Assembly (NCBI GenBank): GCA_001784565.1
Contig: MFRL01000064.1
Location: forward strand, 1 to 61,105
DNA: 61,105 nucleotides
DNA from: Candidatus Melainabacteria bacterium GWF2_37_15
GTDB lineage: Bacteria; Cyanobacteriota; Vampirovibrionia; Gastranaerophilales; UBA9971
Direction of reading: 5' to 3'
Each line of letters begins with the position of its first letter. Position 1 is the stretch's first letter. The notes beneath the pieces are model-generated. The model saw only the letters and a program-made list of their open reading frames with translations, made no database searches and was not told the DNA's origin. Shown here one piece after another: positions 1-27,486 of this stretch. A program made the translations under genes and the position numbers.

Positions 1-960
1 CCTGTAGCTGTAGTAGCTGTACCTGTTAAAGTAAGATTTTCAACATTTGCATCAAGTACGTAGTTAATGCTTGATTGTACTGTATCAATACCTTCATCTG
101 CGTTTTCATTTACTACATCACTTGCATTATCAACGATATATGTATCGTTACCAGCTCCGCCAATCATTACATCAGCGCCAGTTGCGCCATCAATGATGTT
201 ATTGTTAGCATTACCTGTAATGATGTTATCAAGTTCATTACCTGTAGCTGAAATAGCTAAGTTTGTTATTGTGAGGTTTTCAACGTTAGCGCCGAGGGTG
301 TAATCAACATTTGCTTGTACAGTATCTATTCCTGCATTTAAATCTTCAATAATTACATCACTTACATTATCAACAATGTAGGTATCGTTGCCTGCACCAC
401 CGATCATGGTGTCTGAACCCACTGCGCCATCAAGGATGTTATTTAAAGAATTGCCTGTGATAATGTTATCCAAAGCATTTCCTGTACCGGTGGTAGCTGA
501 ACCTGTTAACGTAAGGTTTTCAACATTAGCGCCAAGGGTAAGATTAATGCTGGATTGTACTGTATCAACGCCTTCGCCTGCAGCTTCAATTGCTACATCG
601 CCTGCATTATCAACAATGTAGGTATCATTACCAGCTCTACCTGTCATAGCATCAGCGCCAACTCCACCATCAAGGATGTTATCTAAAGAATTGCCTGCAA
701 TGATATTATTAAGTTCGTTTCCTGTAGCTGTAGTAGCTGTACCTGTTAAGGTAAGGTTTTCAACATTAGCGCCAAGGGTATAATTAATGCTTGATTGTAC
801 TGTATCATCACCTTCGTTAATATTTTCAATAACAACATCACCTGCATTATCAACGATATAAGTATCATCACCGGTAAGACCTGACATAGTATCAGCGCCA
901 AGTTTTCCGTCAATAATGTTATCTAAGGAATTACCAGTAAGTACATCATTACCATCTGTT
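1..960 (-). repeat. ~240-bp coding tandem repeat (80-aa units) of the RTX protein
   Basis: cctgtagctg/cctgtaccgg recurs at 1, 241, 481 and 721; ttttcaacattagcgcc-like blocks recur with the same period. Confidence 0.9.
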
Positions 961-1643
961 CCATTTATTTCCACAACTTCAACAGGTGGTGGTGGATCAT
1001 TATTTATTAAAGCTTCGATTTTTTTAATATTTAAAGAAGTACCATTAGAAAATTTAAAGTAATCAATTTTGTTAGACTGATTAATAAACCAATTTTTAAT
1101 TGTTACTTTATCAAGAAGTCCATTAAAAGAAACAACAAGATTGTTAGAATCCTGAGTAATTATAATATTACTAGTAGTATACATACTTGCAAATTTCAGT
1201 ACATTAGTGCCGCCAACTTCAACAACTTGGTCCTGTCCGCCTGAAAAATAATAAATATCATCGCCACGACCGCCAATTAGCGTATCGTTGCCAGCTCCGC
1301 CATTAAGATAATCATCGCCGTTACCGCCGTATAAAATATCATCGCCGTTTCCGCTGCAAAGAATATCATCACCATTATCACCGTGAAGGACGTCATTGCC
1401 ATCATCGGCTATTAATATATCTGTTCCGTTACCGCCGTAGAGTGTGTCGTTGCCGGCGCCTGCAAAAAGGATGTCATTTCCTTTTCCGCCATACAAAACA
1501 TCATCACCAGCTCCGCCGAAAAGAATATCGTTACCATTTCCGCCGTAAAGTGTGTCATCGCCGTCGCCACTGATTAAAATGTCTGTACCGTTACCACCGT
1601 CCAGAATGTCGTCGCCATTTGTACCAATTAAGATTTCTGCCAT
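1..1643 (-). CDS. RTX/hemolysin-type Ca2+-binding repeat protein (probable type I-secreted adhesin), 5' part; runs off the window
   Basis: Not in the ORF track. ATG at 1643 with an upstream AGAAGGGG RBS; open to position 1. Translation MAEILIGTNGDDILDGGNGTDILI... has 14 GGxGxDxLx-like nonapeptides, a DKVTIKNWF..IDYFKFSNG domain, then ~80-aa repeats (GNDTYIVDNAGDVV.E...G.DTVQSSINYTLGANVENLTLTG). Confidence 0.93.
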   Translation of the reverse strand, partial: MAEILIGTNGDDILDGGNGTDILISGDGDDTLYGGNGNDILFGGAGDDVLYGGKGNDILFAGAGNDTLYGGNGTDILIADDGNDVLHGDNGDDILCSGNGDDILYGGNGDDYLNGGAGNDTLIGGRGDDIYYFSGGQDQVVEVGGTNVLKFASMYTTSNIIITQDSNNLVVSFNGLLDKVTIKNWFINQSNKIDYFKFSNGTSLNIKKIEALINNDPPPPVEVVEINGTDGNDVLTGNSLDNIIDGKLGADTMSGLTGDDTYIVDNAGDVVIENINEGDDTVQSSINYTLGANVENLTLTGTATTATGNELNNIIAGNSLDNILDGGVGADAMTGRAGNDTYIVDNAGDVAIEAAGEGVDTVQSSINLTLGANVENLTLTGSATTGTGNALDNIITGNSLNNILDGAVGSDTMIGGAGNDTYIVDNVSDVIIEDLNAGIDTVQANVDYTLGANVENLTITNLAISATGNELDNIITGNANNNIIDGATGADVMIGGAGNDTYIVDNASDVVNENADEGIDTVQSSINYVLDANVENLTLTGTATTAT

Positions 1644-2133: not shown

Positions 2134-4176
2134 ATGAAAAAATTGCTAAATTTTAAAAAATTTATTTTTTTATTTGTAGTTTTTGTTACACTGTCTATTA
2201 CTTATATCGTGACACATTATTTATTAAATGGAATGGTAAATAATGTAGAAATGACATTGTATGATCACCTGGCGAGGTTGTCTGCTGATAATATGCTGGC
2301 GCTTAATGAACAAAGCAAAGCAAGTGATGACATAGTTATATTAGCTATTGATAATGATTCCCAAAAATTAGAAAAAGACTTAAATATTGGAAGATGGCCC
2401 TGGCCAAGAAGTGTTTGGAGTGATGTTATTGATTTTGTTAGCAAAGGCGCACCCAAATGTATTGTCTTTGATATCAGATTTGAAGGAAAAGAAGGGAATA
2501 GTAGTGATAATATTAAATCTGATACTAAATTTGCTAATGCTATAAAAAATCATAAAAAAAATATTATTCTGGCTTTTTTATTGAGAAAGCAAAAAATATT
2601 TAGTGACAATAAATATATAGATTTTATACCTCTACGTCATGATTTAATTTTAAAGATTGAAGATTCAGATTTATATAAATCAAAAGATTATAAAAACAAA
2701 ATTTTAGACTACATTACTTATTTAGATTATCATCCACTTTGGGATGAATTCATTGAAAATACCAAATATATTGGTGCTACAAACCAGGTACAAAGCAATA
2801 ATGACAGTATAATAAGGTCACATAGGCCTTTATATACTTTAGCTAATTCGAAAGTAGCGGCGTATGTGCCATCATTGCCTTTAGCTGCAGTGTTAGCTGT
2901 ATTGCCAGATGAGGAGAAAAAACCGTTTAAATTAATGCATGATCGGATAATTCTTGGCAAAAGAGTCATTCAGCTAGACAATGAAGGTAAATTTTTTATT
3001 AACTGGCACGGCGAACATAGTAAGCACAACACATACAAGTTTATACCTATTTCAAAGGTGCTGGATAAGTCGCAAAGAATATTGCCTGATGAATTTAAAA
3101 ATAAAATTGTTGTTATCGGAAGAACTCAAAATGGATCAGATATTCATGCAACTTCTATGGCTATGAATTACGTTGGGCCTGAAATTATGGCTACGTGTAT
3201 TGATAATATTTTAAATGATACTGATACAACGAATAAATTTAGAAGAAAATTTATAACCAAAGCCGGTCTTATTTCTCAGAGTTTAATTATTCTTTTGTTT
3301 TGTTTAGTAACAGGTTTATTTATTCGCAAGGCGAGCTCCAATTTTTACAGCTTTATCTGGTTAGTATTTATTGTGCTGGCATATATGCTGGCTGCAGTGG
3401 CAAGTTTTGCTTTTTTGAGATACTGGATAAGCATTGTTTATCCGCTAATTTTTATAATTTCTACTGCAATGACAGTGTACTTGTATAAACTTCACATTTC
3501 AAATAAGCAAAAAAATGAGATTAAAGAGTTGTTTGGCAGGTTTGTATCGCCTCAAGTACTTGATAAATTATTATTAGACCCTTCAGTTATATCAAAAGAA
3601 GGTGATAGAAAAGTTCTTACTGTTTTATTCTCAGATATTAGAGGATTTACTACATTATCAGAACATTTGCCTGCTAATGAATTACTCTCTCAATTAAATG
3701 AGTATTTTAATGAAGTTTATGAAGTTGTAATAAAACATGGGGGCACTTTCGATAAATATATTGGTGATGCTGTCATGGCTTTTTATGGCGATCCGCTGCC
3801 GGTTGAAAATCACGCACTCCAGGCTGTTTTAACTGCTATAGATATGATAAAACTTCTTGAAAAATTAAATGAACGTTGGAAAAGTGAGAACAGGCAGGAA
3901 TTAAATATAGGGATCGGGATCAACACCGGGGAAATGATTGTGGGGCCGGTAGGAGCCAGAAAAATGGTCAGCTACACAGTTATGGGGGATAGTGTAAATA
4001 CTGCATCCAGGCTAGAAAGTTTAAACAAGGAGTATAAAACTAACATTATAATAAGCCATTCAACTTACGAGCAGGTTAAGGATTATGTTGAAACAGAGTA
4101 TCTTGGGGAAGTTATGGTTAAGGGTAAGCAAGTTGCTATAAATATATATAAAGTAACTGGTTCTAAACTTTTGTAA
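2134..4176 (+). CDS. CHASE2-domain adenylate/guanylate cyclase (class III)
   Basis: CHASE2 motifs (IVILAID, GRWPWPR, IVFDI, KIVVIG), 3 TM helices, cyclase motifs LFSDIRGFT, DKYIGDAVMA, IGIGINTG, GDSVNTASRLE. Confidence 0.95.
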   Translation: MKKLLNFKKFIFLFVVFVTLSITYIVTHYLLNGMVNNVEMTLYDHLARLSADNMLALNEQSKASDDIVILAIDNDSQKLEKDLNIGRWPWPRSVWSDVIDFVSKGAPKCIVFDIRFEGKEGNSSDNIKSDTKFANAIKNHKKNIILAFLLRKQKIFSDNKYIDFIPLRHDLILKIEDSDLYKSKDYKNKILDYITYLDYHPLWDEFIENTKYIGATNQVQSNNDSIIRSHRPLYTLANSKVAAYVPSLPLAAVLAVLPDEEKKPFKLMHDRIILGKRVIQLDNEGKFFINWHGEHSKHNTYKFIPISKVLDKSQRILPDEFKNKIVVIGRTQNGSDIHATSMAMNYVGPEIMATCIDNILNDTDTTNKFRRKFITKAGLISQSLIILLFCLVTGLFIRKASSNFYSFIWLVFIVLAYMLAAVASFAFLRYWISIVYPLIFIISTAMTVYLYKLHISNKQKNEIKELFGRFVSPQVLDKLLLDPSVISKEGDRKVLTVLFSDIRGFTTLSEHLPANELLSQLNEYFNEVYEVVIKHGGTFDKYIGDAVMAFYGDPLPVENHALQAVLTAIDMIKLLEKLNERWKSENRQELNIGIGINTGEMIVGPVGARKMVSYTVMGDSVNTASRLESLNKEYKTNIIISHSTYEQVKDYVETEYLGEVMVKGKQVAINIYKVTGSKLL

Positions 4177-5375: not shown

Positions 5376-7055
5376 ATGAGTCAAGTAAATTCCAGTAGTT
5401 TAACACAAATTACACAATCGTTAGCAAATTTAGCATCACTTGTTTCAGGTTCAGACTCGGCGAAAAGTACATCAACTAAGACAAGTACTGGAACTGATTC
5501 AATATTCAAGCAGTCATCAACAAATTCATTAGCAGATTCTCTTTTAGGAATTTCTAATACAGGCAGTGCATCAACATCAACTAACGCTCTGACAAGTTTA
5601 CTTACTATGGCATTTGGTCTTATATCCGCATTTAGTGGAATAACTGGTAACAATACAGCAATGAATTCTAACCCATTTGCCAGTATGTTAGGTAATACAG
5701 GCTTAGGTACCGGACTTAATACAGGCGGTATGATGGGTGGAATGACAGGAATGACAGGCATGGGCGGAATGGGTACCGGATTAAATACCGGATTAAATGC
5801 AGGCCTTAATACAGGCGGCCTGGCAACTCTTGCTAATTCTGCAGCAGCATCATCAAATCCTTACCTAACACAGGTAGCTGCAAACCTCGGCGCTCTTCCA
5901 ACTAATACATCGCCAATGGGAAATACATTAGCAGCAATGACAAATAGCGGTACATTAAGTAATACAAGTAGTGCTATAAATAGTTTGCCAGTAGGTAGTG
6001 CATTTGGTACTTATAACCTTATGTTACCCGGCGGAAGTGTAGGCCTCGGTAGTTTAGCCGGATCAGCCAGCTTAGGCACAGGTGGATTATTAACTGGTAG
6101 TAGTGTACCGTCCGTTTCAAGTGGCATTCTGGCACAACCTGATACAGGTAATGGTGTAGCTGGCGTCGATAGCTTAATAGGCAAGTATTCAACATTCTTA
6201 TACGGTGGTGCATCAGGAGTCGGAACACCAGTCGATACTGGAAGCTCAGATAGCTCAGGTAAATCAGCAGGCGCCGGTACTAAAGCAGAAACTGAAACAA
6301 AAGTAGACACTATTAAAAATGTTGTAAAAACTACAGAATCCGAACCTGCAGCAACAGCAGCACCTGTTAAAGATACAAAAGCTGAAACTCAGGCAGAAAC
6401 AATAAAACAGGATGAAGTAATTGCAGATGCACAAGCTAAAGTTGAAGCTGCAAAAGCTGAAATAGCTGAAACACCAAAAGCTGAAGTCCCAGAAACACCA
6501 GCAACTGCAACCGCTGCAGCACCAGCAGTTGCAGCACCAGAAGCCCCACCAGCTGCAGCTCCAGAAGCTCCAAAAACCGAAACAGAAGCATTAATTGAGA
6601 AATATACAAATACTATAGCTGAAGCAAAGGATCAAAAGGCTGAAACTGCAGCTGCTGAAGTACCAGCAGCACCAGCAGCACCTGCAGAACCTACAGAAGC
6701 CACTGAAACTACAAAAACTGAAGAAACTCAGGTAACCACTGAAACTACAAAACCTGCAGAAGAAGGAACAGAAGCAGCAAGTTCAGATGTGCCTGAAGAA
6801 AAAGTAGAAACAACTGAAGAAACCACAACAAGTGAAGAAACTGTAAAAACAGCAGACGCTGGACAACCTGGAGAGGCTATAGCAGCACAAGTATCTACAG
6901 ATGCAGCAAGCGCTACAGCTAGCGCACCAGCTGGCGAAGCTGCCCCGGCTGAAGGTGAACATAAAGCAGAAGGTGAAGCAGCACCAGATGAAGGAGCACC
7001 AGCAGCAGAAGCAGAAAAAGCACCAGCACCTGAAGCGCCTCCTGCACAAGCATAA
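5376..7055 (+). CDS. Low-complexity, Cys-free protein; Gly/Ser/Met-rich N-half (harpin-like composition), Ala/Glu/Pro/Thr-rich acidic C-half
   Basis: 559-aa ORF with GAGGAG RBS; GTGLNTG/GMTGM repeats; downstream terminator. Confidence 0.8.
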   Translation: MSQVNSSSLTQITQSLANLASLVSGSDSAKSTSTKTSTGTDSIFKQSSTNSLADSLLGISNTGSASTSTNALTSLLTMAFGLISAFSGITGNNTAMNSNPFASMLGNTGLGTGLNTGGMMGGMTGMTGMGGMGTGLNTGLNAGLNTGGLATLANSAAASSNPYLTQVAANLGALPTNTSPMGNTLAAMTNSGTLSNTSSAINSLPVGSAFGTYNLMLPGGSVGLGSLAGSASLGTGGLLTGSSVPSVSSGILAQPDTGNGVAGVDSLIGKYSTFLYGGASGVGTPVDTGSSDSSGKSAGAGTKAETETKVDTIKNVVKTTESEPAATAAPVKDTKAETQAETIKQDEVIADAQAKVEAAKAEIAETPKAEVPETPATATAAAPAVAAPEAPPAAAPEAPKTETEALIEKYTNTIAEAKDQKAETAAAEVPAAPAAPAEPTEATETTKTEETQVTTETTKPAEEGTEAASSDVPEEKVETTEETTTSEETVKTADAGQPGEAIAAQVSTDAASATASAPAGEAAPAEGEHKAEGEAAPDEGAPAAEAEKAPAPEAPPAQA

Positions 7056-7077
7056 TTTTTAAAGAATAGAGCAACGC

Positions 7078-7105
7078 TGGTCGGTGTTAACCGGCCAGTT
7101 TTGTT
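7078..7105 (+). terminator. Intrinsic terminator
   Basis: CTGGTCGG-tgttaa-CCGGCCAG hairpin followed by TTTTGTT. Confidence 0.7.
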
Positions 7106-7184: not shown

Positions 7185-7487
7185 ATGAGTAATATAAAAA
7201 GTTTCGCAGAAAGAAGCAGAGATTTTGAAGAGGCACATCATTCTTGCAGGGAACTCATGGCAGCGCCTCTTAATAAGATTGAAAATTATGTAACAAAATG
7301 GCTCATAGCGGCAATAGGTGCTGTTATACTTATACAGGCAGTAGGTTTTACGTATTTATATTATGAATTAATGCATCTCAGAAAAAAGGTTGATCACAGG
7401 TATTTCCTTATTGAAGAAAGCCTTGAGGATATTCATCATGTCAAGATTGAGAATGGGAAAGTAGTAAGGAATTACACAAAAGAATAA
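7185..7487 (+). CDS. Small single-pass membrane protein, unknown function
   Basis: 100 aa with one hydrophobic segment (WLIAAIGAVILIQAVGFTYLYY); AAGGA RBS. Confidence 0.7.
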   Translation: MSNIKSFAERSRDFEEAHHSCRELMAAPLNKIENYVTKWLIAAIGAVILIQAVGFTYLYYELMHLRKKVDHRYFLIEESLEDIHHVKIENGKVVRNYTKE

Positions 7488-7517
7488 TTTAAAATATAAA
7501 GTTTTGTTAAGAAAATT

Positions 7518-7544
7518 GCAGGTTTTCCCTGAGATTGTCGATAT
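7518..7544 (+). promoter_or_regulatory. Putative sigma28 (FliA-type) promoter of the giant EF-hand gene
   Basis: GCAGGTTT-N11-GTCGATAT versus consensus TAAAGTTT-N11-GCCGATAA; 36 nt upstream of ATG 7581. Confidence 0.55.
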
Positions 7545-7580
7545 ATTTTATTAAGTATCGTCAGTTTCAAGGGGAATAAA

Positions 7581-10500
7581 ATGGGTCTTCCAATTAATTT
7601 TCTCAACATCTTAAATCTGTATAATATTCGGGACTTTAGCGAATTCAGCGGGACCGATGCGTATACGATTGATGATAACGTAAGTATTTTCTTTAGTTCA
7701 CTGGAAAATGTTGCTGGCAACCCGGTGGATGGCCAGATTTCCCTTGCTGAATATAACAAGTTTTTAAAGCTTGTAAATTTACCTTCTTACATGAGTAATG
7801 GCTTTTTTAATACATTTGATGCCAACGATGACGGGATAATAACAAATGAAGAGTTTAGTAATGGGTTGAGTTCATTTGACTCAAATAATAATGATACACT
7901 CGATTGGAATGAGGGAATAAACATTTATAATTCATTTTCAAATGCGGACATCCCATCTGATATAACCTTTACTCAGTATTCTAATTTTCTTTCAACTTCC
8001 CAGGGTGCGATTAATTTTTACGATAAAAACGCTGATGGGAAGATAGATTCTTCTGAATACACCACAATCCTTAAAAATATGGGATTAGACGATAGCGGCG
8101 CTACTGCCGGAAATTTAATTGATTTATATGACAGGGATAATGATAATGCCATAAATTTTGAAGAATTTTTCCTGCAGAATTTACAATGGGATACAAACGA
8201 GGATGGCGTTATTGAATTTGATGAAGGAGAAGCTGGAGAGCTTATAAATAACCTGCCATGGTATTTACGTCCCTCAGATAGCTTTACTGCAATCCAGAAA
8301 ATGGTTTCTTCCTTAATTAAATCTTATGACAAAGATGCAAATAAAGAACTCAGTCGCGATGAGTTTATGAATTATATGGTAAAAACAGCCTATTTCCCTA
8401 AGAGTATGGCAGAAGAAATATGGTCAGCTCATAGCAGTGGCGATTCACTATCTTTTGATAGCCTCGTATCGCTATATGAAGGTTTTGATTCAAATAACGA
8501 TGATGAAATGAAATATGGCGAGCTTATATCATTTATAAACTCATTTTCAAATATACAGATTGACAGTGCTGCGATTTCCGAAACACAGTATACCGGGTTA
8601 TATAAACTGGGCGCTCAAGCTATAAAAGGTTATGATGGTGATGGAGATGGCGAAATAAGTGTAGATGAATACCGGGCAGCAATAAAACAGGCTGAAACCT
8701 CATATAAAAATGCAGGAAAAGAATTACCTGAAGGTTTTGGCCAGCACATGGCTGAAAATTTTGTAAGACTGTTTGATATGGATAAAACTGGCACAGTCAG
8801 TATCTTAGAAATCATAAATCAGTACGCATTATCGGATTCAAACAAGGATGGAGCTGTTTCCAGCGGGGAATTCCTCAATATGCAGGAAAGAATTGAAGAT
8901 AAAACCCTATGGAATAACGTTAATGAAGAATTCATCACTAACGGAGATAAAGATTACGACAAAGCATTGAGTTTGACAGAACTCCAGAATGTACTCGTAA
9001 CAAAAGGATTACCAAAATATATTGCGGAGAATGCTTTTACACTATTTGATTCAAACCAGGACGCTAAATTAAGCCGTCTTGAACTTATGGAAGCTTTCTC
9101 CCGATATGACAACAGCACAGTCAATACAGATTATATAGAAGGTGAAACAGGCGAAGATTACACGCTGTACACCGGTAATTCCAATCAGGTACTGGATGCG
9201 GACGAAAAACTTGCTATGTATGAAGATCTTTCAGGTATAGCATACACACCAGACCCGGCAAAAAGAGCCCAATATGAAAAAATATTAGCTTCTTCCCAGG
9301 AACTTATCAAAAATTATGATATGTATAAAGATGGCGTGTTAAGCGCTGATGAATATAAGAAACATTTTAAAGCTATCGGATTACCTGACTATTTGGCTGA
9401 TGCTATTATTTCCGCTCATGATGTAAGTGGTGATGGCAGCTTTGACCTTCTTGAAAACTTAAAATTAATGCTTGATTACGACTTGAACCAGAACGGAACT
9501 CTGGAATTTAATGAAGAATTTACTTTATACGATAATTTAACCGGGGTAGGTTTAAATATTACCGAAGAAAACAAGCTTCAATACTCCAAGCTCTATACTA
9601 CAGTTAAAAATTTCCTATCAGCTTCTGATATAAGCAGTAACCAGGTTCTTAACAGGGACGGATCACTCCAAATAGATGAGCTGGCAAAGTATTTCATAAG
9701 TAAAGGCCTTCCTCAAGATTATGCGGATATGGCGCTTGCAGCTTATGATGTAAATACTGACGGCGGATTGGATATCCTTGAATGGATGAAGGCATACGCT
9801 GAATTCGATGTTGATGGTGATGGAAATATCGGAGAAAGTGAAGAACTGGCATTTTTTGACCATATAGCAGGGACTGACTTGTCGGGCATAACTGACTCCC
9901 AAATGTATGCAAAAATAGAAGATGCCGCAAGCTTACTTATACAAACTTATGACAAAAGTGATAATAACAAAAAACTAAGTGAAGCAGAGTTAATAGAAAG
10001 AATGAAATCGCTTGGTTTGCCTGATTATATAGCAGGCGAAGCACTCGAGGCTTTTGATCTTAATGCTGACGGTGGAGTGGACAAGCTGGAATGGATGAAA
10101 GCATATACTGGTGTTGACCATAACCAAAACGGTGTTCTTGAATTCAACGAAGAACTTGAATTATACAGCAATCTGTCTTCCTCTGGCTTAATCTCTGCTT
10201 CAGCCGATGATCTAAAACAGTATTCAACAATTTATAATTCCTTAAAAAAATTCATGACTCTAAGAGATGATACAACTGACAGAATCTTAAATGCAGACGA
10301 ATTAAAAGATTACTTTACCCAGCTTGAACTCCCTGAATATATGGCCACAGAGGCAGTTAAACTTTATGACAAAAACGGTGACAACGGACTGGATATTTAT
10401 GAATGGATGCTGCCAAATATAGAGTTTGATATTAACAAGAACGGAATTCTCGAATTTAATGAAGTAATGGGTATGAATGGTGTGATTGCAGACCCGGATC

Positions 10501-13037
10501 TACCTATTGATCCGAATACTATGGATGTTACACAGGTCACTAACCTGTATAATTCTGTCAAAAAATACATAACCAGCCTTGATACTGAATATAGTGATAA
10601 TAGAATCTCTGAAAGCGAATTAATAAAAAAATACAAATCACTTGGACTATCTGATAACATTGCAAAAGATGTCATGGCGTCTCAGGATGCAAATAGTGAC
10701 GGATATTTAGACCTAATAGAATGGCTAAATACCAGTTTACAATTTGATGCAAATCACACAGGGATACTGGATTTCAATGAATTAATGAATTTGTACCAGA
10801 CAGCTACCGGAATAGAGTTAAATGCCACTGATGCTAACATTAAACAGCAACAGACTATGTATAACTCTGCATTAACAGCTATGAATACATACGATCTTAA
10901 CAGTGACAAAAGGATGTCCGGTACGGAATTCAAAAAATGGTTATCAGCCAGCTTTGGAATGACAGATAGTATGGCGAGCCAGGTTGTTAGTAATTATGAT
11001 TCCTTGATTGGAAATGGTGATGGGGAATTTGACGTCCTGGAATTAACAAAAGCTTTAGTAGATTTTGATGTAAATGGTAATGGCGTCTGGGACAAAGATG
11101 AAAAATTGAATTTCGTTGATAATGCATTACCACATATTGATTTAGGTGGTGTAAACGGAACTAACGTAACACAATATTCGAGTTTGTTAAGCTTCACAAC
11201 CTCTAAAACAAGCGCTTATGGCGGCGGTGATAATGAATTAACCGGTGCAGAATTTAAAAAATGGTTGGGAAGTGCCTATGCACTTACAGATGATATAGCA
11301 AACCAGGTAGTAAGCCATTATGATACGAGTGGAAATGGCCAGATGGATACATTGGAATTAGCACAGGCCATGATTGCACTTAATACAAACAATAATGGCA
11401 CATGGGATAATGATGAAAGACTGAATTTCATTGATAACGCCTTACCGTCCATTGATTTAGGCGGGGTAGATGCAAACAATGTCACGCAATATTGGAGCTT
11501 ATTCAGCTTCGCATTTGATAGAATAAAATCTAATGGGGGCGGTGATTATAAATTAACAAGCGCAGAGTTCAAAACCTGGTTAGGCGGCGCTTATGGACTC
11601 ACAAATGAAATGACAGATCAGGTAATCAGCTATTATGATACAAATGGCGATGAAATGATGGATGTTATGGAATTAACTCAGGCTATGATTTCGGTTAATG
11701 CAAACTCTAATGGTGCATGGGACAACGATGAAAGGCTAAATTTCTTTGATAATGCAATGGAATCCATAAATTTAGGCGGCGTAGACAGCAATAATCTTAA
11801 GCAATATTGGAGTTTATTTAATTTTGCCATTGAAAAAGTAAAAACATATGGGAACGGTGACAATAAATTAACCAATGTAGAGCTCAAAAAATGGCTTGGA
11901 AGTGTTTATGCTTTAACAGATGAAATGGCTGACCAGGCAATTAGCTACTATGATACAGATGGTGATAGTCAGGTGGATGCGCTGGAATTAACCCAGGCAT
12001 TGCAAAATGTTGACGCAAACGCTAATGGTATATGGGATAATGATGAAAGGCTGAATTTCTTTGATAACGCCTTACCATCTATCGATTTAGGCGGTGTTGG
12101 TTCTGATAATGTCACGCAGTATTGGAAATTATATAATTATGCAATCACTTGTATTAAAACTGCTGACCTGAACTTTAACAGAAATTTATCCCAGAGCGAA
12201 TATCGTTTATACCTTGAAAAACAGGGGATACCGAATTATATAGCTGATGCAGCTCTTAGTGCTTATGATACTAACAAAGACGGTGAAATGGATGCACTAG
12301 AATTTACAAAAGCTCTTACAAACTTTGATCATAACCAGAATGGTGTATGGGACTTTGATGAAAAGATGGATTTCTACGAAGCTAACTCCGGCGTAACATT
12401 AAATGCGGATTCAACTAATAATACTCAGTACACTAAGTTATTTGCTAAAGCCTCAGCTTTTGTTAACCCGTTGGATCTTGATAAAAATAAAGGCTACAGC
12501 GCTGATGAATACAAGGTATACCTTAAAAAGCAAGGATTACCGGAATACTTAGCAGACGGTATGTTGTCCCTTTATGATTTTAATAAGGATGGAATGATAG
12601 ATATTATAGAACAAACCAGGGCTTATATAGACTTAGATATAAATAAATCAGGAGCAATTGAATTTGATGAGCTTATGAATTATAACAAAAAGCTTGCCGG
12701 TGCAACCGGGTATAATTTTAGTTTTACTGCAGACTTAAATAATACATATCAGCTTAACAAAATTTATACCAGCCAGCTTGCGACTTTAAAAACAAGAGAT
12801 TCAAACTATGACCGTACACTTCAGGCGTCAGAGTATGAACGTGCGCTTATTGCTGCCGGATTTACAGCAGCAGAAGCTTCAACTATGGCAGTAAATGCTG
12901 TTGCACAATACGATTTTAATCATGATGGCGGAATTGATGTATTCGAATGGATGGACACAGTATTAAGATTTGATGTAAACAAAAATGGAGTCCTTGATAC
13001 AGCTGAAAAAACCAGCTTTTACAATAGTATGAAATAA
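7581..13037 (+). CDS. Giant multi-EF-hand Ca2+-binding protein (17 modules x 3 EF-hand-like loops)
   Basis: About 51 DxxxDGxxxxxE-type loops counted by eye (e.g. DANDDGIITNEE, DGDGDGEISVDE, DFNHDGGIDVFE), some degenerate; no signal peptide or TM segment. Confidence 0.92.
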   Translation: MGLPINFLNILNLYNIRDFSEFSGTDAYTIDDNVSIFFSSLENVAGNPVDGQISLAEYNKFLKLVNLPSYMSNGFFNTFDANDDGIITNEEFSNGLSSFDSNNNDTLDWNEGINIYNSFSNADIPSDITFTQYSNFLSTSQGAINFYDKNADGKIDSSEYTTILKNMGLDDSGATAGNLIDLYDRDNDNAINFEEFFLQNLQWDTNEDGVIEFDEGEAGELINNLPWYLRPSDSFTAIQKMVSSLIKSYDKDANKELSRDEFMNYMVKTAYFPKSMAEEIWSAHSSGDSLSFDSLVSLYEGFDSNNDDEMKYGELISFINSFSNIQIDSAAISETQYTGLYKLGAQAIKGYDGDGDGEISVDEYRAAIKQAETSYKNAGKELPEGFGQHMAENFVRLFDMDKTGTVSILEIINQYALSDSNKDGAVSSGEFLNMQERIEDKTLWNNVNEEFITNGDKDYDKALSLTELQNVLVTKGLPKYIAENAFTLFDSNQDAKLSRLELMEAFSRYDNSTVNTDYIEGETGEDYTLYTGNSNQVLDADEKLAMYEDLSGIAYTPDPAKRAQYEKILASSQELIKNYDMYKDGVLSADEYKKHFKAIGLPDYLADAIISAHDVSGDGSFDLLENLKLMLDYDLNQNGTLEFNEEFTLYDNLTGVGLNITEENKLQYSKLYTTVKNFLSASDISSNQVLNRDGSLQIDELAKYFISKGLPQDYADMALAAYDVNTDGGLDILEWMKAYAEFDVDGDGNIGESEELAFFDHIAGTDLSGITDSQMYAKIEDAASLLIQTYDKSDNNKKLSEAELIERMKSLGLPDYIAGEALEAFDLNADGGVDKLEWMKAYTGVDHNQNGVLEFNEELELYSNLSSSGLISASADDLKQYSTIYNSLKKFMTLRDDTTDRILNADELKDYFTQLELPEYMATEAVKLYDKNGDNGLDIYEWMLPNIEFDINKNGILEFNEVMGMNGVIADPDLPIDPNTMDVTQVTNLYNSVKKYITSLDTEYSDNRISESELIKKYKSLGLSDNIAKDVMASQDANSDGYLDLIEWLNTSLQFDANHTGILDFNELMNLYQTATGIELNATDANIKQQQTMYNSALTAMNTYDLNSDKRMSGTEFKKWLSASFGMTDSMASQVVSNYDSLIGNGDGEFDVLELTKALVDFDVNGNGVWDKDEKLNFVDNALPHIDLGGVNGTNVTQYSSLLSFTTSKTSAYGGGDNELTGAEFKKWLGSAYALTDDIANQVVSHYDTSGNGQMDTLELAQAMIALNTNNNGTWDNDERLNFIDNALPSIDLGGVDANNVTQYWSLFSFAFDRIKSNGGGDYKLTSAEFKTWLGGAYGLTNEMTDQVISYYDTNGDEMMDVMELTQAMISVNANSNGAWDNDERLNFFDNAMESINLGGVDSNNLKQYWSLFNFAIEKVKTYGNGDNKLTNVELKKWLGSVYALTDEMADQAISYYDTDGDSQVDALELTQALQNVDANANGIWDNDERLNFFDNALPSIDLGGVGSDNVTQYWKLYNYAITCIKTADLNFNRNLSQSEYRLYLEKQGIPNYIADAALSAYDTNKDGEMDALEFTKALTNFDHNQNGVWDFDEKMDFYEANSGVTLNADSTNNTQYTKLFAKASAFVNPLDLDKNKGYSADEYKVYLKKQGLPEYLADGMLSLYDFNKDGMIDIIEQTRAYIDLDINKSGAIEFDELMNYNKKLAGATGYNFSFTADLNNTYQLNKIYTSQLATLKTRDSNYDRTLQASEYERALIAAGFTAAEASTMAVNAVAQYDFNHDGGIDVFEWMDTVLRFDVNKNGVLDTAEKTSFYNSMK
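10900..12200 (+). repeat. 315-bp coding tandem repeat (105-aa module) inside the EF-hand gene
   Basis: ttgataa(t/c)gc...atttagg block at ~11116, 11431, 11746 and 12061 (LNF.DNA...I.LGGV). Confidence 0.85.
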
Positions 13038-13064: not shown

Positions 13065-13724
13065 ATGTTTAAACGTTTTACAAAAAAAATTATTCGTAAC
13101 GGTATAAAAAATATACTTACCGGGGATGATTCCCTCTCTATCGATGGTGAACAACGGGTTATAAAGGAAGAAATTAACAAACAAGCCCGTGAAGTCCTTA
13201 AAAACGCAATAGATAAACCTGAAATACTGCTTGATTTTATAAAATCAAAAGGGACCCAAATTGTAAAATCTAAGCATATACATAAAATTCTCTTGCTTTT
13301 CGGTGAAACTGAAGGGTTTATTACACCAATGAAAGGGATAAAAGCCCTGTTATTCACAACCGTTATTAATATGTTTTCCCCGGTTAAGTTGAAAGCAGGG
13401 TTTAGTACGCCTGCAATTTTCGCATTAAATGATGAGCCGGTGAATATCTACATATTAGCCCATCAATTTCACCTCTGGCTGTCTTATATAAACAATCTTC
13501 CAGGATTTGAGGAAAGAACACTGTATAATTTTAAAAATTTCTGGAAGCAGGGGCATCAATCACAAGATGTATCATATCTTTCCGTTGATGAGATATTCTC
13601 GTTGAAAGACATAATAGCAAGGGAACTTGAGGCACTGAGTTTTGTGAAGGAACTTGGCAGGGAATTTGAGGGACAGAAAAAATCCATTAAAAAGCTTAGG
13701 GAAGGTGGAAGTGTGAATTTGTAG
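13065..13724 (+). CDS. Hypothetical protein
   Basis: 219-aa ORF directly downstream of the EF-hand gene; no family recognised. Confidence 0.7.
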   Translation: MFKRFTKKIIRNGIKNILTGDDSLSIDGEQRVIKEEINKQAREVLKNAIDKPEILLDFIKSKGTQIVKSKHIHKILLLFGETEGFITPMKGIKALLFTTVINMFSPVKLKAGFSTPAIFALNDEPVNIYILAHQFHLWLSYINNLPGFEERTLYNFKNFWKQGHQSQDVSYLSVDEIFSLKDIIARELEALSFVKELGREFEGQKKSIKKLREGGSVNL

Positions 13725-26134: not shown

Positions 26135-26863
26135 TTAATACTTTCTTTTTACAGCTCTATTGTGTGCAAGCCACTCGAATTCATCGTTAATTTCGGCTAA
26201 ATTAACCTGCCCGTAATTCCTTTCAAGGGATAGTTTTATTAAATAGTCAGTAAAATGTGGGTTTTTGGGCAGTAATGAACCATGTAAATAAGTGCCAAAA
26301 ACATTCTTTTTATAGGCTCCCTCTGATTTATCTTTACCGTTGTTGCCGTTCCCGATAATAACGCTACCAATTGGCTTTGTTTCACCTTCTAAATACGTTA
26401 GCCCGCTATGGTTTTCAAACCCTGTCAAAGTATTAGTATTATTTAGTGGTAAATCAGACAGCACTGTAACGTTTCCGATATATCTTGTATTTCCGGCGAT
26501 AGTGTATGCGTCTAAAAGGCTGATTCCTTTTAATTCCTCACCATCATGCGGCCGGTAATAATGTCCGAAAAGCTGGTATCCCCCGCAAATTGCCAGAAAA
26601 ACCGCACCGCTGTCCATGGCTTCATGAAGCGGGGTTTTTTGTTTCTGCAGTTCGTGAGAAACCGCGATTTGCTGCTGGTCCTGGCCTCCGCCTATAAAAT
26701 AAAAGTCGTAAAGCTCAGGGTTTATTTTATCGTTAATGCCGATTTCATGGACTTTTACGTCTATATTTCTCCACGTGCAACGTTTAATAAAGGCAGTTAC
26801 GTTGCCTTTATCACCATAAATGTTTAGTAAATCAGGGTATAAATGTGCTATGTTTATCTGCAT
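26135..26863 (-). CDS. gatD: CobQ/GatD-like type 1 glutamine amidotransferase
   Basis: HLYPDLLNIYGDKGN, IGGGQD, AICGGYQL, GFENHSG, GTYLHGSLLPKNP. Confidence 0.88.
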   Translation of the reverse strand: MQINIAHLYPDLLNIYGDKGNVTAFIKRCTWRNIDVKVHEIGINDKINPELYDFYFIGGGQDQQQIAVSHELQKQKTPLHEAMDSGAVFLAICGGYQLFGHYYRPHDGEELKGISLLDAYTIAGNTRYIGNVTVLSDLPLNNTNTLTGFENHSGLTYLEGETKPIGSVIIGNGNNGKDKSEGAYKKNVFGTYLHGSLLPKNPHFTDYLIKLSLERNYGQVNLAEINDEFEWLAHNRAVKRKY

Positions 26864-26970
26864 TTTTATCCTGGAAAAATCCTACTTAAAGATATTTTAA
26901 CAGCAAATATTGTGATGAATAATATGTCAAAATCGAGAAATCCAATCGAGTAATTTTATAAGGAGGAAAA

Positions 26971-27486
26971 ATGAAAAAAATATTACTTCTGGTACTGGTA
27001 ACGACAGCCATTATGCTAAGTGGCACAATAAAAGCCGATGCTGCTCTGCCACAAAACTCCAACATGAGTACTGCAGAAACACTATACTATTCAGGTGAAT
27101 TCTGCAAATTTTATGACCTATTAGAGCGTGCCGATCTTAATAGAGTTTTAAAAGGGAGAGGGCCATATACGGTTTTTGCTCCATCAGATGCTGCTTTAGC
27201 CAATGTACCGCAGGATATGCTTAACAAACTCGCCGGCGCACAAAATCAATGCGAGTTGGAAAGAGCAATGAGATACCATATTGTTTCTGATTGTGTATCC
27301 TGTCAACAACTAGCTGCCGGTAGTACTATAAAAACCACGGATGGAAGATGTGTTTGCGCCGGAAATGCTGCAAATGCAATAACATTAAATAATGCAAGAA
27401 TCGTACAGAGTGTTAATACAAACAATGGCGTAATTCATGTTATTGATAACATACTATTGCCTAGCGATCAGTTAAGCTTAAGGTAA
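26971..27486 (+). CDS. Exported fasciclin (FAS1) domain protein
   Basis: Signal peptide; GPYTVFAPSDAA, YHIV, NGVIHVIDNILLP. Confidence 0.93.
   Translation: MKKILLLVLVTTAIMLSGTIKADAALPQNSNMSTAETLYYSGEFCKFYDLLERADLNRVLKGRGPYTVFAPSDAALANVPQDMLNKLAGAQNQCELERAMRYHIVSDCVSCQQLAAGSTIKTTDGRCVCAGNAANAITLNNARIVQSVNTNNGVIHVIDNILLPSDQLSLR

Follow-up and report, generated by a model that had tools for sequence, protein, structure and literature searches.

We examined a gene on a 61,105-nucleotide (nt) stretch of DNA, called the window below, which comprises contig MFRL01000064.1 of Candidatus Melainabacteria bacterium GWF2_37_15, a non-photosynthetic groundwater relative of cyanobacteria. The gene encodes a giant protein, P0001, composed of 17 modules with three EF-hands each. 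In the structure predicted for the module, hands 1 and 2 form an ordinary EF-hand pair and hand 3 is an orphan fused to that pair, an arrangement that sets the family of P0001 apart from known bacterial EF-hand proteins. The family is undescribed and narrowly distributed. Judged from its promoter region, the giant gene very probably belongs to the late flagellar (FliA) regulon. The reading we prefer, and offer tentatively, is that P0001 is a calcium-stiffened acidic rod of that regulon, which would probably be exported, most likely via the flagellar export gate.

Module architecture and predicted structure

P0001 has an isoelectric point of 4.1, a net charge of −178, and 1 Cys. Among the 1416 long open reading frames (ORFs) of a crude proteome it ranks third in length, and its charge per residue lies within the lowest 0.7%; its Cys content is 0.1%, as compared to 1.1% for the crude proteome. 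Pfam gave nothing above the cut-offs but EF-hand families (EF-hand_1, 1.5e-59; EF-hand_7, 5.4e-47; SPARC_Ca_bdg, 1.8e-11), and no catalytic domain. No transmembrane segment was found (the top 19-residue Kyte-Doolittle mean was 1.28), and examination of the N-terminus by eye revealed no Sec-type signal. These results agree with the original prediction, made from the DNA letters, that the protein has no catalytic domain, transmembrane segment, or signal peptide.

When the chain was cut behind every third loop, the 17 pieces of about 105 amino acids (aa) each aligned in register, and a module profile run on the whole genome marked 17 stretches within ORF 7581..13037. The predicted protein of 1818 aa with 17 three-loop modules of ~105 aa was thus borne out. 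From one loop start to the next the distance is 34–36 aa for loops 1 to 2, 20 aa for loops 2 to 3, and ~48 aa from loop 3 to the following loop 1, so that the spacers within a module are ~22–24 residues (1 to 2) and 8 residues (2 to 3). A loop was scored as canonical if its length was 12 and positions 1, 3, 5, and 12 all carried ligand-type residues. By this definition 40 of the 51 loops were canonical (loop 1, 9/17; loop 2, 15/17; loop 3, 16/17), and the remaining 11 had insertions, deletions, or one ligand lost. Loop 3 is the best kept: in 54 modules from eight genomes its D was present in 52, its N or D in 53, its G in 47, and its E in 52, and position 8 was hydrophobic (L in 27, W in 17, I in 6, and F in 3). 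P0001 thus has the features that characterize the EF-hand superfamily, namely 12-residue loops with ligands at positions 1, 3, 5, and 12 (the 40 canonical loops) and flanking helices, which were seen at every loop in both models described here.

The structure of modules 8–10 was predicted with AlphaFold2 from an alignment of 50 three-module windows derived from eight genomes. The model had a mean predicted local distance difference test (pLDDT) score of 92.9 and a predicted template modeling (pTM) score of 0.87; a pTM this high suggests that the modules keep a fixed orientation to one another. Each module in the model has five helices, and the 11-residue helix between loops 2 and 3 serves both hands, being the exiting helix of hand 2 and the entering helix of hand 3. 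Bridges assigned by DSSP joined loop 1 to loop 2 in all three modules, and none involved any loop 3. Hands 1 and 2 are thus predicted to form an ordinary EF-hand pair; because the bridges join loops 1 and 2 alone, hand 3 is predicted to be an orphan within the chain, with no partner loop. The 10-residue blocks holding loop 3 nevertheless had a mean pLDDT of at least 92 in this single-chain model. Unpaired EF-hands are unusual, and it had been proposed that the odd hand pairs between modules. That idea was not borne out by the three-module prediction, which gave ordinary pairing for hands 1 and 2 and left hand 3 partnerless.

Structural alignment of the model against 48,161 solved chains placed hands 1–2 on solved EF-hand pairs (6psd_E, Z score 10.1, root-mean-square deviation [rmsd] 1.7 Å, 73 residues; 5otj_C, Z 9.6). 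Matches of more than 120 residues had rmsd values of 8–17 Å, and no solved chain fitted more than one module well. A Foldseek search with the three-module model gave a best E-value of 2.1e-4, at a TM-score on the query of 0.23, and no TM-score on the query exceeded 0.24; the ESM Atlas returned generic EF-hand clusters alone (best score 0.88). The module profile matched 380 sequences in the PDB; among the 60 matches listed, nearly all end at profile positions 74–85, before the third hand.

Hands 1–2 resemble the pair of calmodulin and troponin C (EF-hand_7) in being a canonical helix-loop-helix pair with bridged loops. The module profile matches calmodulin at ~1e-13 over profile positions ~22–85, and the structures align with Z 8–10 and rmsd 1.5–2 Å over ~70 residues. 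P0001 differs from both proteins in adding an unpaired third hand after 8 residues and in repeating the unit 17 times in one chain. Lanmodulins, in the part of their description available to us, have EF loops 12–13 residues apart, as compared to ~25 in typical proteins, and are recognized by four hands with that spacing, Pro at loop position 2, and a length of <200 aa (PMC10232371). As far as that description goes, P0001 shares with them short spacers between adjacent EF loops and a compact bundle with peripheral sites; it differs in that only the spacer between loops 2 and 3 is short (8), each module has three hands, Pro is at position 2 in 1 of 51 loops (the degenerate first loop of module 1), and the chain has 1818 aa. 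The structural match was also weak (8fns_A, Z 6.5, rmsd 3.9 Å over 76 residues, model residues 223–314).

Described bacterial EF-hand proteins are small. The available portion of one account gives four motifs for calerythrin and describes calsymin, from Rhizobium etli, as a secreted calmodulin-like protein whose repeated EF-hand domains are three in number and made of ordinary pairs (PMC10574481). Compared by description only, calsymin is like P0001 in being bacterial and having repeated EF-hand domains, and differs in having just three of them, with ordinary pairs, and in not being known to be under flagellar control. P0001 scored 132.3 bits (cut-off 120) with the model for XopAW (NF041410), an EF-hand effector of type III secretion. 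Because this score is the sum of eight partial stretches on a 235-position model, the best covering positions 67–163, it reflects repeated EF-hands and not the family architecture; P0001 is also eight times longer. Long EF-hand arrays (P0011–P0014 and many of the profile matches) are likewise >1000 aa and almost wholly EF-hands, but they have a period of ~80 aa and a commonest loop spacing of 36, and they match the hand 1–2 part alone. What makes the P0001 family stand out is its ~50 sites per chain, the orphan hand fused helix-to-helix to a pair, and the probable promoter tie to the flagellum.

A word-indexed search identified 10 family proteins including P0001, with scores of 646–4039 bits and lengths of 1336–2224 aa; the next match had 69 bits. 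When 1.84 billion representatives were searched with a profile, 17,838 matched at E<=0.001. The 13 best, with at least 498 bits, all had 8–20 full modules; below them the scores dropped to 278 bits or less, and most matches covered the hand 1–2 part alone. A survey of module number in homologues, suggested in the original prediction, gave a range of 16 to 21 modules per family protein. A well-characterized homologous family, for which that prediction had allowed, was sought by the sequence and profile searches and among the source names, and none was found; the source names are generic (e.g., 'EF-hand domain-containing protein'). Nor was a published account of the family found by literature searches on Melainabacteria EF-hand proteins or on flagellar/sigma28 calcium-binding proteins; among the matches listed, the latter topic yielded almost exclusively work on eukaryotic flagella. 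Eight loci are in species-representative genomes, of which seven are titled Melainabacteria, Gastranaerophilales, or Cyanobacteria metagenome-assembled genomes and one is titled an uncultured gammaproteobacterium. Of 401 genomes sampled from the class, only the window's own had the gene (0/400 others); as a control, the same search did recover it in three carrier genomes.

The loop spacing of 20 occurred 178 times in the family, as compared to 13 times, in five proteins, among 135 other multi-EF-hand proteins. One protein, P0134, has the 36-20-44 loop rhythm of the giant family and may be a distant relative; another, P0051, has loops 20 residues apart and a hydrophobic signal-like segment at its N-terminus. 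A third, P0110, has two to three of the three-hand modules ahead of RTX repeats (HemolysinCabind, 1.9e-45), and these repeats are 36–38% identical to an RTX-repeat protein encoded at the edge of the window (3–1643, − strand; HemolysinCabind, 2.3e-51), whose gene runs beyond that edge. Two orthologues are split or partial: one (L004:6031-12159) occupies two frames, of 668 and 1336 aa, that are 110 nt apart, and the other (L008:6743-8377) is just a 544-aa N-terminal piece with an integrase gene ~2.6 kb downstream (10989-11822).

Tandem Repeats Finder detected a period of 315 bp at 11088..12126 (3.3 copies, 72% matches). Modules 12–14 are 57–65% identical to one another in protein and 69–73% in DNA; with any module of the three closest orthologues their identity is 53% at most, and they have no one-to-one counterpart there. 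Module 10 is 67–70% identical to module 10 of P0002–P0004, whereas its identity to the remaining modules of these proteins does not exceed 37%; module 17 is 47–58% identical to its counterpart in the closest orthologues. Because modules 12–14 lack a one-to-one counterpart and have modest mutual identity, this block appears to have expanded or homogenized after the lineages split, and not recently; its modules would be the youngest copies, yet not very recent ones. The earlier claim of a recent 315-bp expansion of modules 11–14 therefore stands as to the tandem repeat, but the block is modules 12–14 and is older than was thought. Their first loops are GGGD, GGGD, and GNGD (residues 1214, 1319, and 1424), as had been read. 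A shortened first loop is found in one or two modules of each of P0002, P0003, and P0004 and is absent from P0005–P0010. Since it is common to the three closest orthologues, it appears to be an inherited sub-clade variant and not, as proposed, a product of fresh decay. Copy number varies solely in the block of modules 12–15; together with the counterpart of module 10, this restriction is more in keeping with a structure whose length is defined than with a mere buffer.

Promoter and flagellar genes

The consensus for sigma28 (FliA) promoters is TAAAGTTT-N11-GCCGATAA. Upstream regions of seven orthologues, whose proteins are 27–52% identical, share three blocks: TAAAGTTTTGTTAA; an AGTT word resembling a −35 element, with G(T/C)CGATA(T/A) 11 nt behind it; and AAGTATCGTCAGTTTCAA immediately 5' of the ribosome-binding site. 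The −10 word G[CT]CGA[TCA]A[TA] was at the same place in seven of eight loci, and L007 has the near copy ACCGAAAT; the two most distant loci have TAAACTTT-N11-GCCGAAAT and TAAACTTT-N11-ACCGAAAT. The first of the shared blocks looks like a second sigma28 −35-type word, located about two helical turns upstream of the promoter. In the leader block, the core TCGTCA is kept in five of the seven orthologues, with one base different in L003 and L004; this motif was not seen 5' of the flagellin genes examined, and a search of the 5' leader for conserved RNA structure gave 0 pairs. No sigma70-type promoter was listed on the + strand from 7488 to 7580.

Lead flagellin genes in five of the eight carrier genomes are preceded by TTCGATAA (5 of 20 upstream regions examined). 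In L024 and L029, the word TAAAGAAT lies 11 nt 5' of TTCGATAA; L041 has a 12-nt spacer, and its retrieved sequence begins with AAAGAAT; regions L032 and L037 end too near TTCGATAA to show the TAAAGAAT word. The site upstream of the giant gene thus resembles the flagellin promoters of carrier genomes. A search for G[CT]CGAT[AT][AT] located 15–110 nt upstream of crudely called genes in the window's genome found 15 of 1731 genes, among them the giant gene, fliL (Pfam FliL, 74.9 bits), a sigma factor, and two of the three other proteins matched by the module profile. The third of these, a weak match on contig C27, has no such −10 site. With a position weight matrix built from the orthologues, the site in the window scored 11.9 bits; 255 genomic sites had at least 11 bits, and the top matches were not clearly flagellar. 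The word AAGTTTTGT[TA]A has 26 occurrences in the genome. The candidate promoter owes its standing to conservation between species and not to its score within the genome. The sigma28-like site originally predicted is present, but the in-genome score, given in the next section, is no better than chance.

FliA itself is encoded in the genome (244.6 bits, cut-off 189.6), as are six flagellin matches and FlhA (879.9 bits). There are two full-length FHIPEP/FlhA paralogues, on contigs C72 (L071:6087-8174, 880 bits) and C66 (L072:5905-8004, 716.7 bits), and a third, partial FHIPEP match on contig C59. Some 2 kb downstream of the C72 paralogue is a gene for a Na+/Ca2+ exchanger. One full-length gene follows fliP-fliR-flhB and the other is between fliH and fliI; an injectisome was therefore set aside as a route, since both genes sit in flagellar operons and no wider search for injectisome genes was made. 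Some Melainabacteria are described, in the available part of one report, as having complete flagellar gene sets and others as having lost them (PMC4040986).

The two other module-profile proteins with a −10 site were characterized further; their promoters were noted only after the proteins had been found. One (contig C14, L059:193-1455) has 420 aa, with one three-hand module (profile positions 25–99, E 3.7e-10) followed by ~320 aa of coiled coil, and its gene has a near-consensus sigma28 promoter, TAAAGTTT-N12-GCCGATTA. Its orthologues were found in G401 (58% identity) and G402 (56%) only, and in none of 400 other class genomes; upstream of the gene, G401 has CAAGTTAT-N11-TCCGATAA and G402 has no clear site. 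The other (contig C87, L060:163-1536) has 457 aa; it combines several EF-hand-like loops with a PPVE-repeat linker and, at the C-terminus, a DUF4114 domain (32 bits against a cut-off of 27). The word GTCGATAA lies ~40 nt 5' of its start, and its N-terminus, MGNEFNIMNDYL, recalls that of the giant protein.

Location and role of the giant protein

Because the candidate promoter is FliA-type and conserved in orthologues, the giant protein would be made alongside late flagellar proteins. In the reading we prefer, it would leave the cell calcium-free and largely unfolded, with the flagellar type III export gate as the most probable route. Outside, about 40 Ca2+ would be bound and the chain would lock into a stiff rod, in which hand 3 would act as a calcium-set joint between successive pair domains; the rod would then serve the flagellated cell as an appendage for structure or adhesion. 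Here we infer the export, its route, the calcium-dependent stiffening, and the role as a rod; what was observed is the architecture, the conserved ligands and promoter, and the narrow distribution. An exported Ca2+ binder was among the functions originally predicted, and support for it is circumstantial: the conserved promoter, the N-terminal segment, the near absence of Cys, and the RTX-fused module of P0110. The extreme charge and the signal-like start of P0051 were also counted in favor of export. Late sigma28 genes include those for exported filament proteins. In the N-terminal segment of 28 residues, F7, N9, I10, and L11 are invariant in eight sequences. An AlphaFold2 model of the N-terminus, with the weakness of an alignment of only eight sequences, had pLDDT <50 at residues 1–9 and 18–25, and no other protein of the genome has a comparable N-terminal motif. 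The segment was also considered as a relic of the third-hand exit helix; this origin was rejected because it gained no support from a profile test, in which 83 to 436 of 500 shuffles scored equally well. In Campylobacter jejuni, according to the available text of one study, non-flagellar cargo of the flagellar apparatus bears its signal in the amino-terminus (PMC2764114).

Several results weigh against the exported rod. The site at 7518..7544 scores 11/16 against the sigma28 consensus, a score reached by 392 of 1000 random 300-nt windows of the genome, and the flagellin genes of this genome also score just 10–11/16. All eight carriers have flagellins, as compared to 134 of 401 class genomes, but 133 of the sampled genomes have flagellins and lack the gene. 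Identity in a housekeeping-type gene was 55–63% in four of five carriers searched, 39% in G404, and ~30% in sampled family f2, so the carriers seem to be one clade; for both reasons the co-occurrence is weak evidence. No conserved neighborhood or adjoining secretion system was found in the eight loci. The N-terminal motif is absent from L006 and L007, the most distant orthologues, and no recognized export signal was found in P0001, type III signals being outside the predictors used. No protein of 1818 aa is known to leave through a flagellar export gate. Since sigma28 regulons also hold cytoplasmic proteins, the promoter cannot establish export; the argument from Cys is weak, because EF-hand proteins are generally Cys-poor; and the coiled-coil relative looks cytoplasmic. 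Finally, the joint role proposed for hand 3 is drawn from the sequence order and the DSSP strings, and the shape of a rod is likewise a conjecture.

Nearly as likely as the exported rod, though still doubtful, is that P0001 stays in the cytoplasm as a calcium buffer of high capacity, a sensor, or a scaffold, produced alongside the late flagellar proteins. Its ~40 sites would absorb calcium transients and perhaps link calcium to the motor or to chemotaxis at the flagellated pole. Sigma28 regulons include cytoplasmic motor and chemotaxis proteins, and canonical EF-hand loops usually have micromolar affinities suited to intracellular signaling. No Sec, Tat, or RTX-type signal was seen in P0001, and the coiled-coil relative behind its sigma28-type promoter looks like an intracellular scaffold. 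A buffer, however, needs neither the fixed module order indicated by the module 10 counterpart nor the rigid geometry between modules suggested by the pTM score, and near-zero Cys with extreme charge is more usual in exported repeat proteins; the related modules of P0110 are, moreover, on an RTX protein.

An unlikely alternative is that P0001 is a type I secretion substrate resembling RTX adhesins, threaded out C-terminus first and folding on extracellular calcium. RTX adhesins and toxins are giant repeat proteins, acidic and poor in Cys; their many calcium sites stay unoccupied within the cell, and the filling of these sites outside drives folding. P0001 is similarly large, acidic, Cys-poor, and rich in calcium sites; contig C76 encodes an HlyB-type ABC exporter (861.1 bits, over the cut-off) and HlyD (303.7 bits), and RTX repeats are present both in the window and fused to modules in P0110. 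The analogy is functional, since P0001 consists of helix-loop-helix hands and not beta-roll nonapeptides. It has no HemolysinCabind repeat, no GGxGxD nonapeptides, and no C-terminal signal region. The chain ends in the exit helix of the last third hand, in module 17, and is therefore without a C-terminal extension; the conserved peptide outside the modules is N-terminal, and no type I genes adjoin the gene in any of the eight loci.

More improbable still is a calcium-zipped fiber, in which each orphan third hand, 17 per chain, would find its partner in a second chain and Ca2+ would drive the formation of dimers or polymers. In penta-EF-hand dimers the fifth hand pairs between chains, and a hand that is partnerless in the single-chain model, and rare for that, is here the best conserved, with a hydrophobic position 8. 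The confidence of the model around loop 3, however, suggests that the hand is stable without a partner. An equally slim chance is given to a combination of this pairing with export through the flagellar gate, by which Ca2+ would zip together rods of 200 kDa to make a sheath, tether, or spring at or near the flagellum. If true, such a fiber of the flagellar regulon would be a bacterial counterpart of eukaryotic centrin/spasmin fibers, built on a new three-hand module.

If the giant protein is exported, as in the preferred reading of a calcium-stiffened rod, it would represent a second, helical solution to calcium-driven extracellular folding, beside the RTX beta-roll, and by far the largest cargo proposed for the flagellar export gate. 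If it is intracellular, it would exceed in size every known bacterial calcium buffer or sensor, and it would be linked to motility. Either way, the three-module fragment folds confidently in silico, which makes its calcium stoichiometry and stiffening directly testable.

Genomic surroundings

Positions of the gene, its upstream elements, and its groups of modules are listed in Table 1.

Table 1. Positions in the window of the giant EF-hand gene and associated elements
Feature	Position	Strand	Basis or description
Conserved upstream block TAAAGTTTTGTTAA	7497..7510	+	Alignment of 7 orthologous upstream regions
Candidate sigma28 (FliA)-type promoter	7518..7544	+	GCAGGTTT-N11-GTCGATAT
Conserved leader block AAGTATCGTCAGTTTCAA	7553..7570	+	Presumed 5' untranslated region, directly 5' of ribosome-binding site
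Ribosome-binding site GGGG	7571..7574	+	Sequence
EF-hand array gene (P0001)	7581..13037	+	ATG start; 1818 aa, 203 kDa, 17 three-EF-hand modules
N-terminal 28 residues, outside module core	7581..7664	+	Conserved; low model confidence
Modules 1–11	7581..11126	+	10 and 11 one-to-one with closest orthologues; 1–9 left unscored
Modules 12–14, 315-bp tandem block	11127..12071	+	Loop 1 shortened (GGGD/GNGD); loop 3 with Trp at position 8
Modules 15–17	12072..13034	+	Chain end is exit helix of last third hand

The giant gene is predicted to be transcribed on its own. It is bounded upstream by a terminator-like hairpin (7076..7099), and its neighbors are unrelated housekeeping genes that differ between loci. 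The upstream ORF 7185..7487 has no counterpart in the orthologous loci. The downstream ORF 13065..13724 was considered as a partner or chaperone and rejected: it adjoins the gene here and in L001 only and lies elsewhere in all five carriers searched. Of 121 class genomes, 34 have this ORF, among them all 24 genomes of family f2, a family in which only 49 of 188 sampled genomes have flagellin.

Farther upstream, positions 5376-7055 encode a 559-aa low-complexity ORF that is rich in S, T, G, A, P, and E, has no Pfam match, and is followed by the 7076-7099 hairpin. Positions 2134-4176, 3.4 kb upstream of the gene, encode a fusion of a CHASE2 sensor with an adenylate/guanylate cyclase domain; in the other loci it was not found near the gene. 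A fasciclin and GATase_3 gene pair lies in inverted orientation 13 kb downstream (26135-27486), whereas in L001 it is directly upstream of the EF-hand gene (L001:8572-9907), which points to a rearrangement between close relatives.

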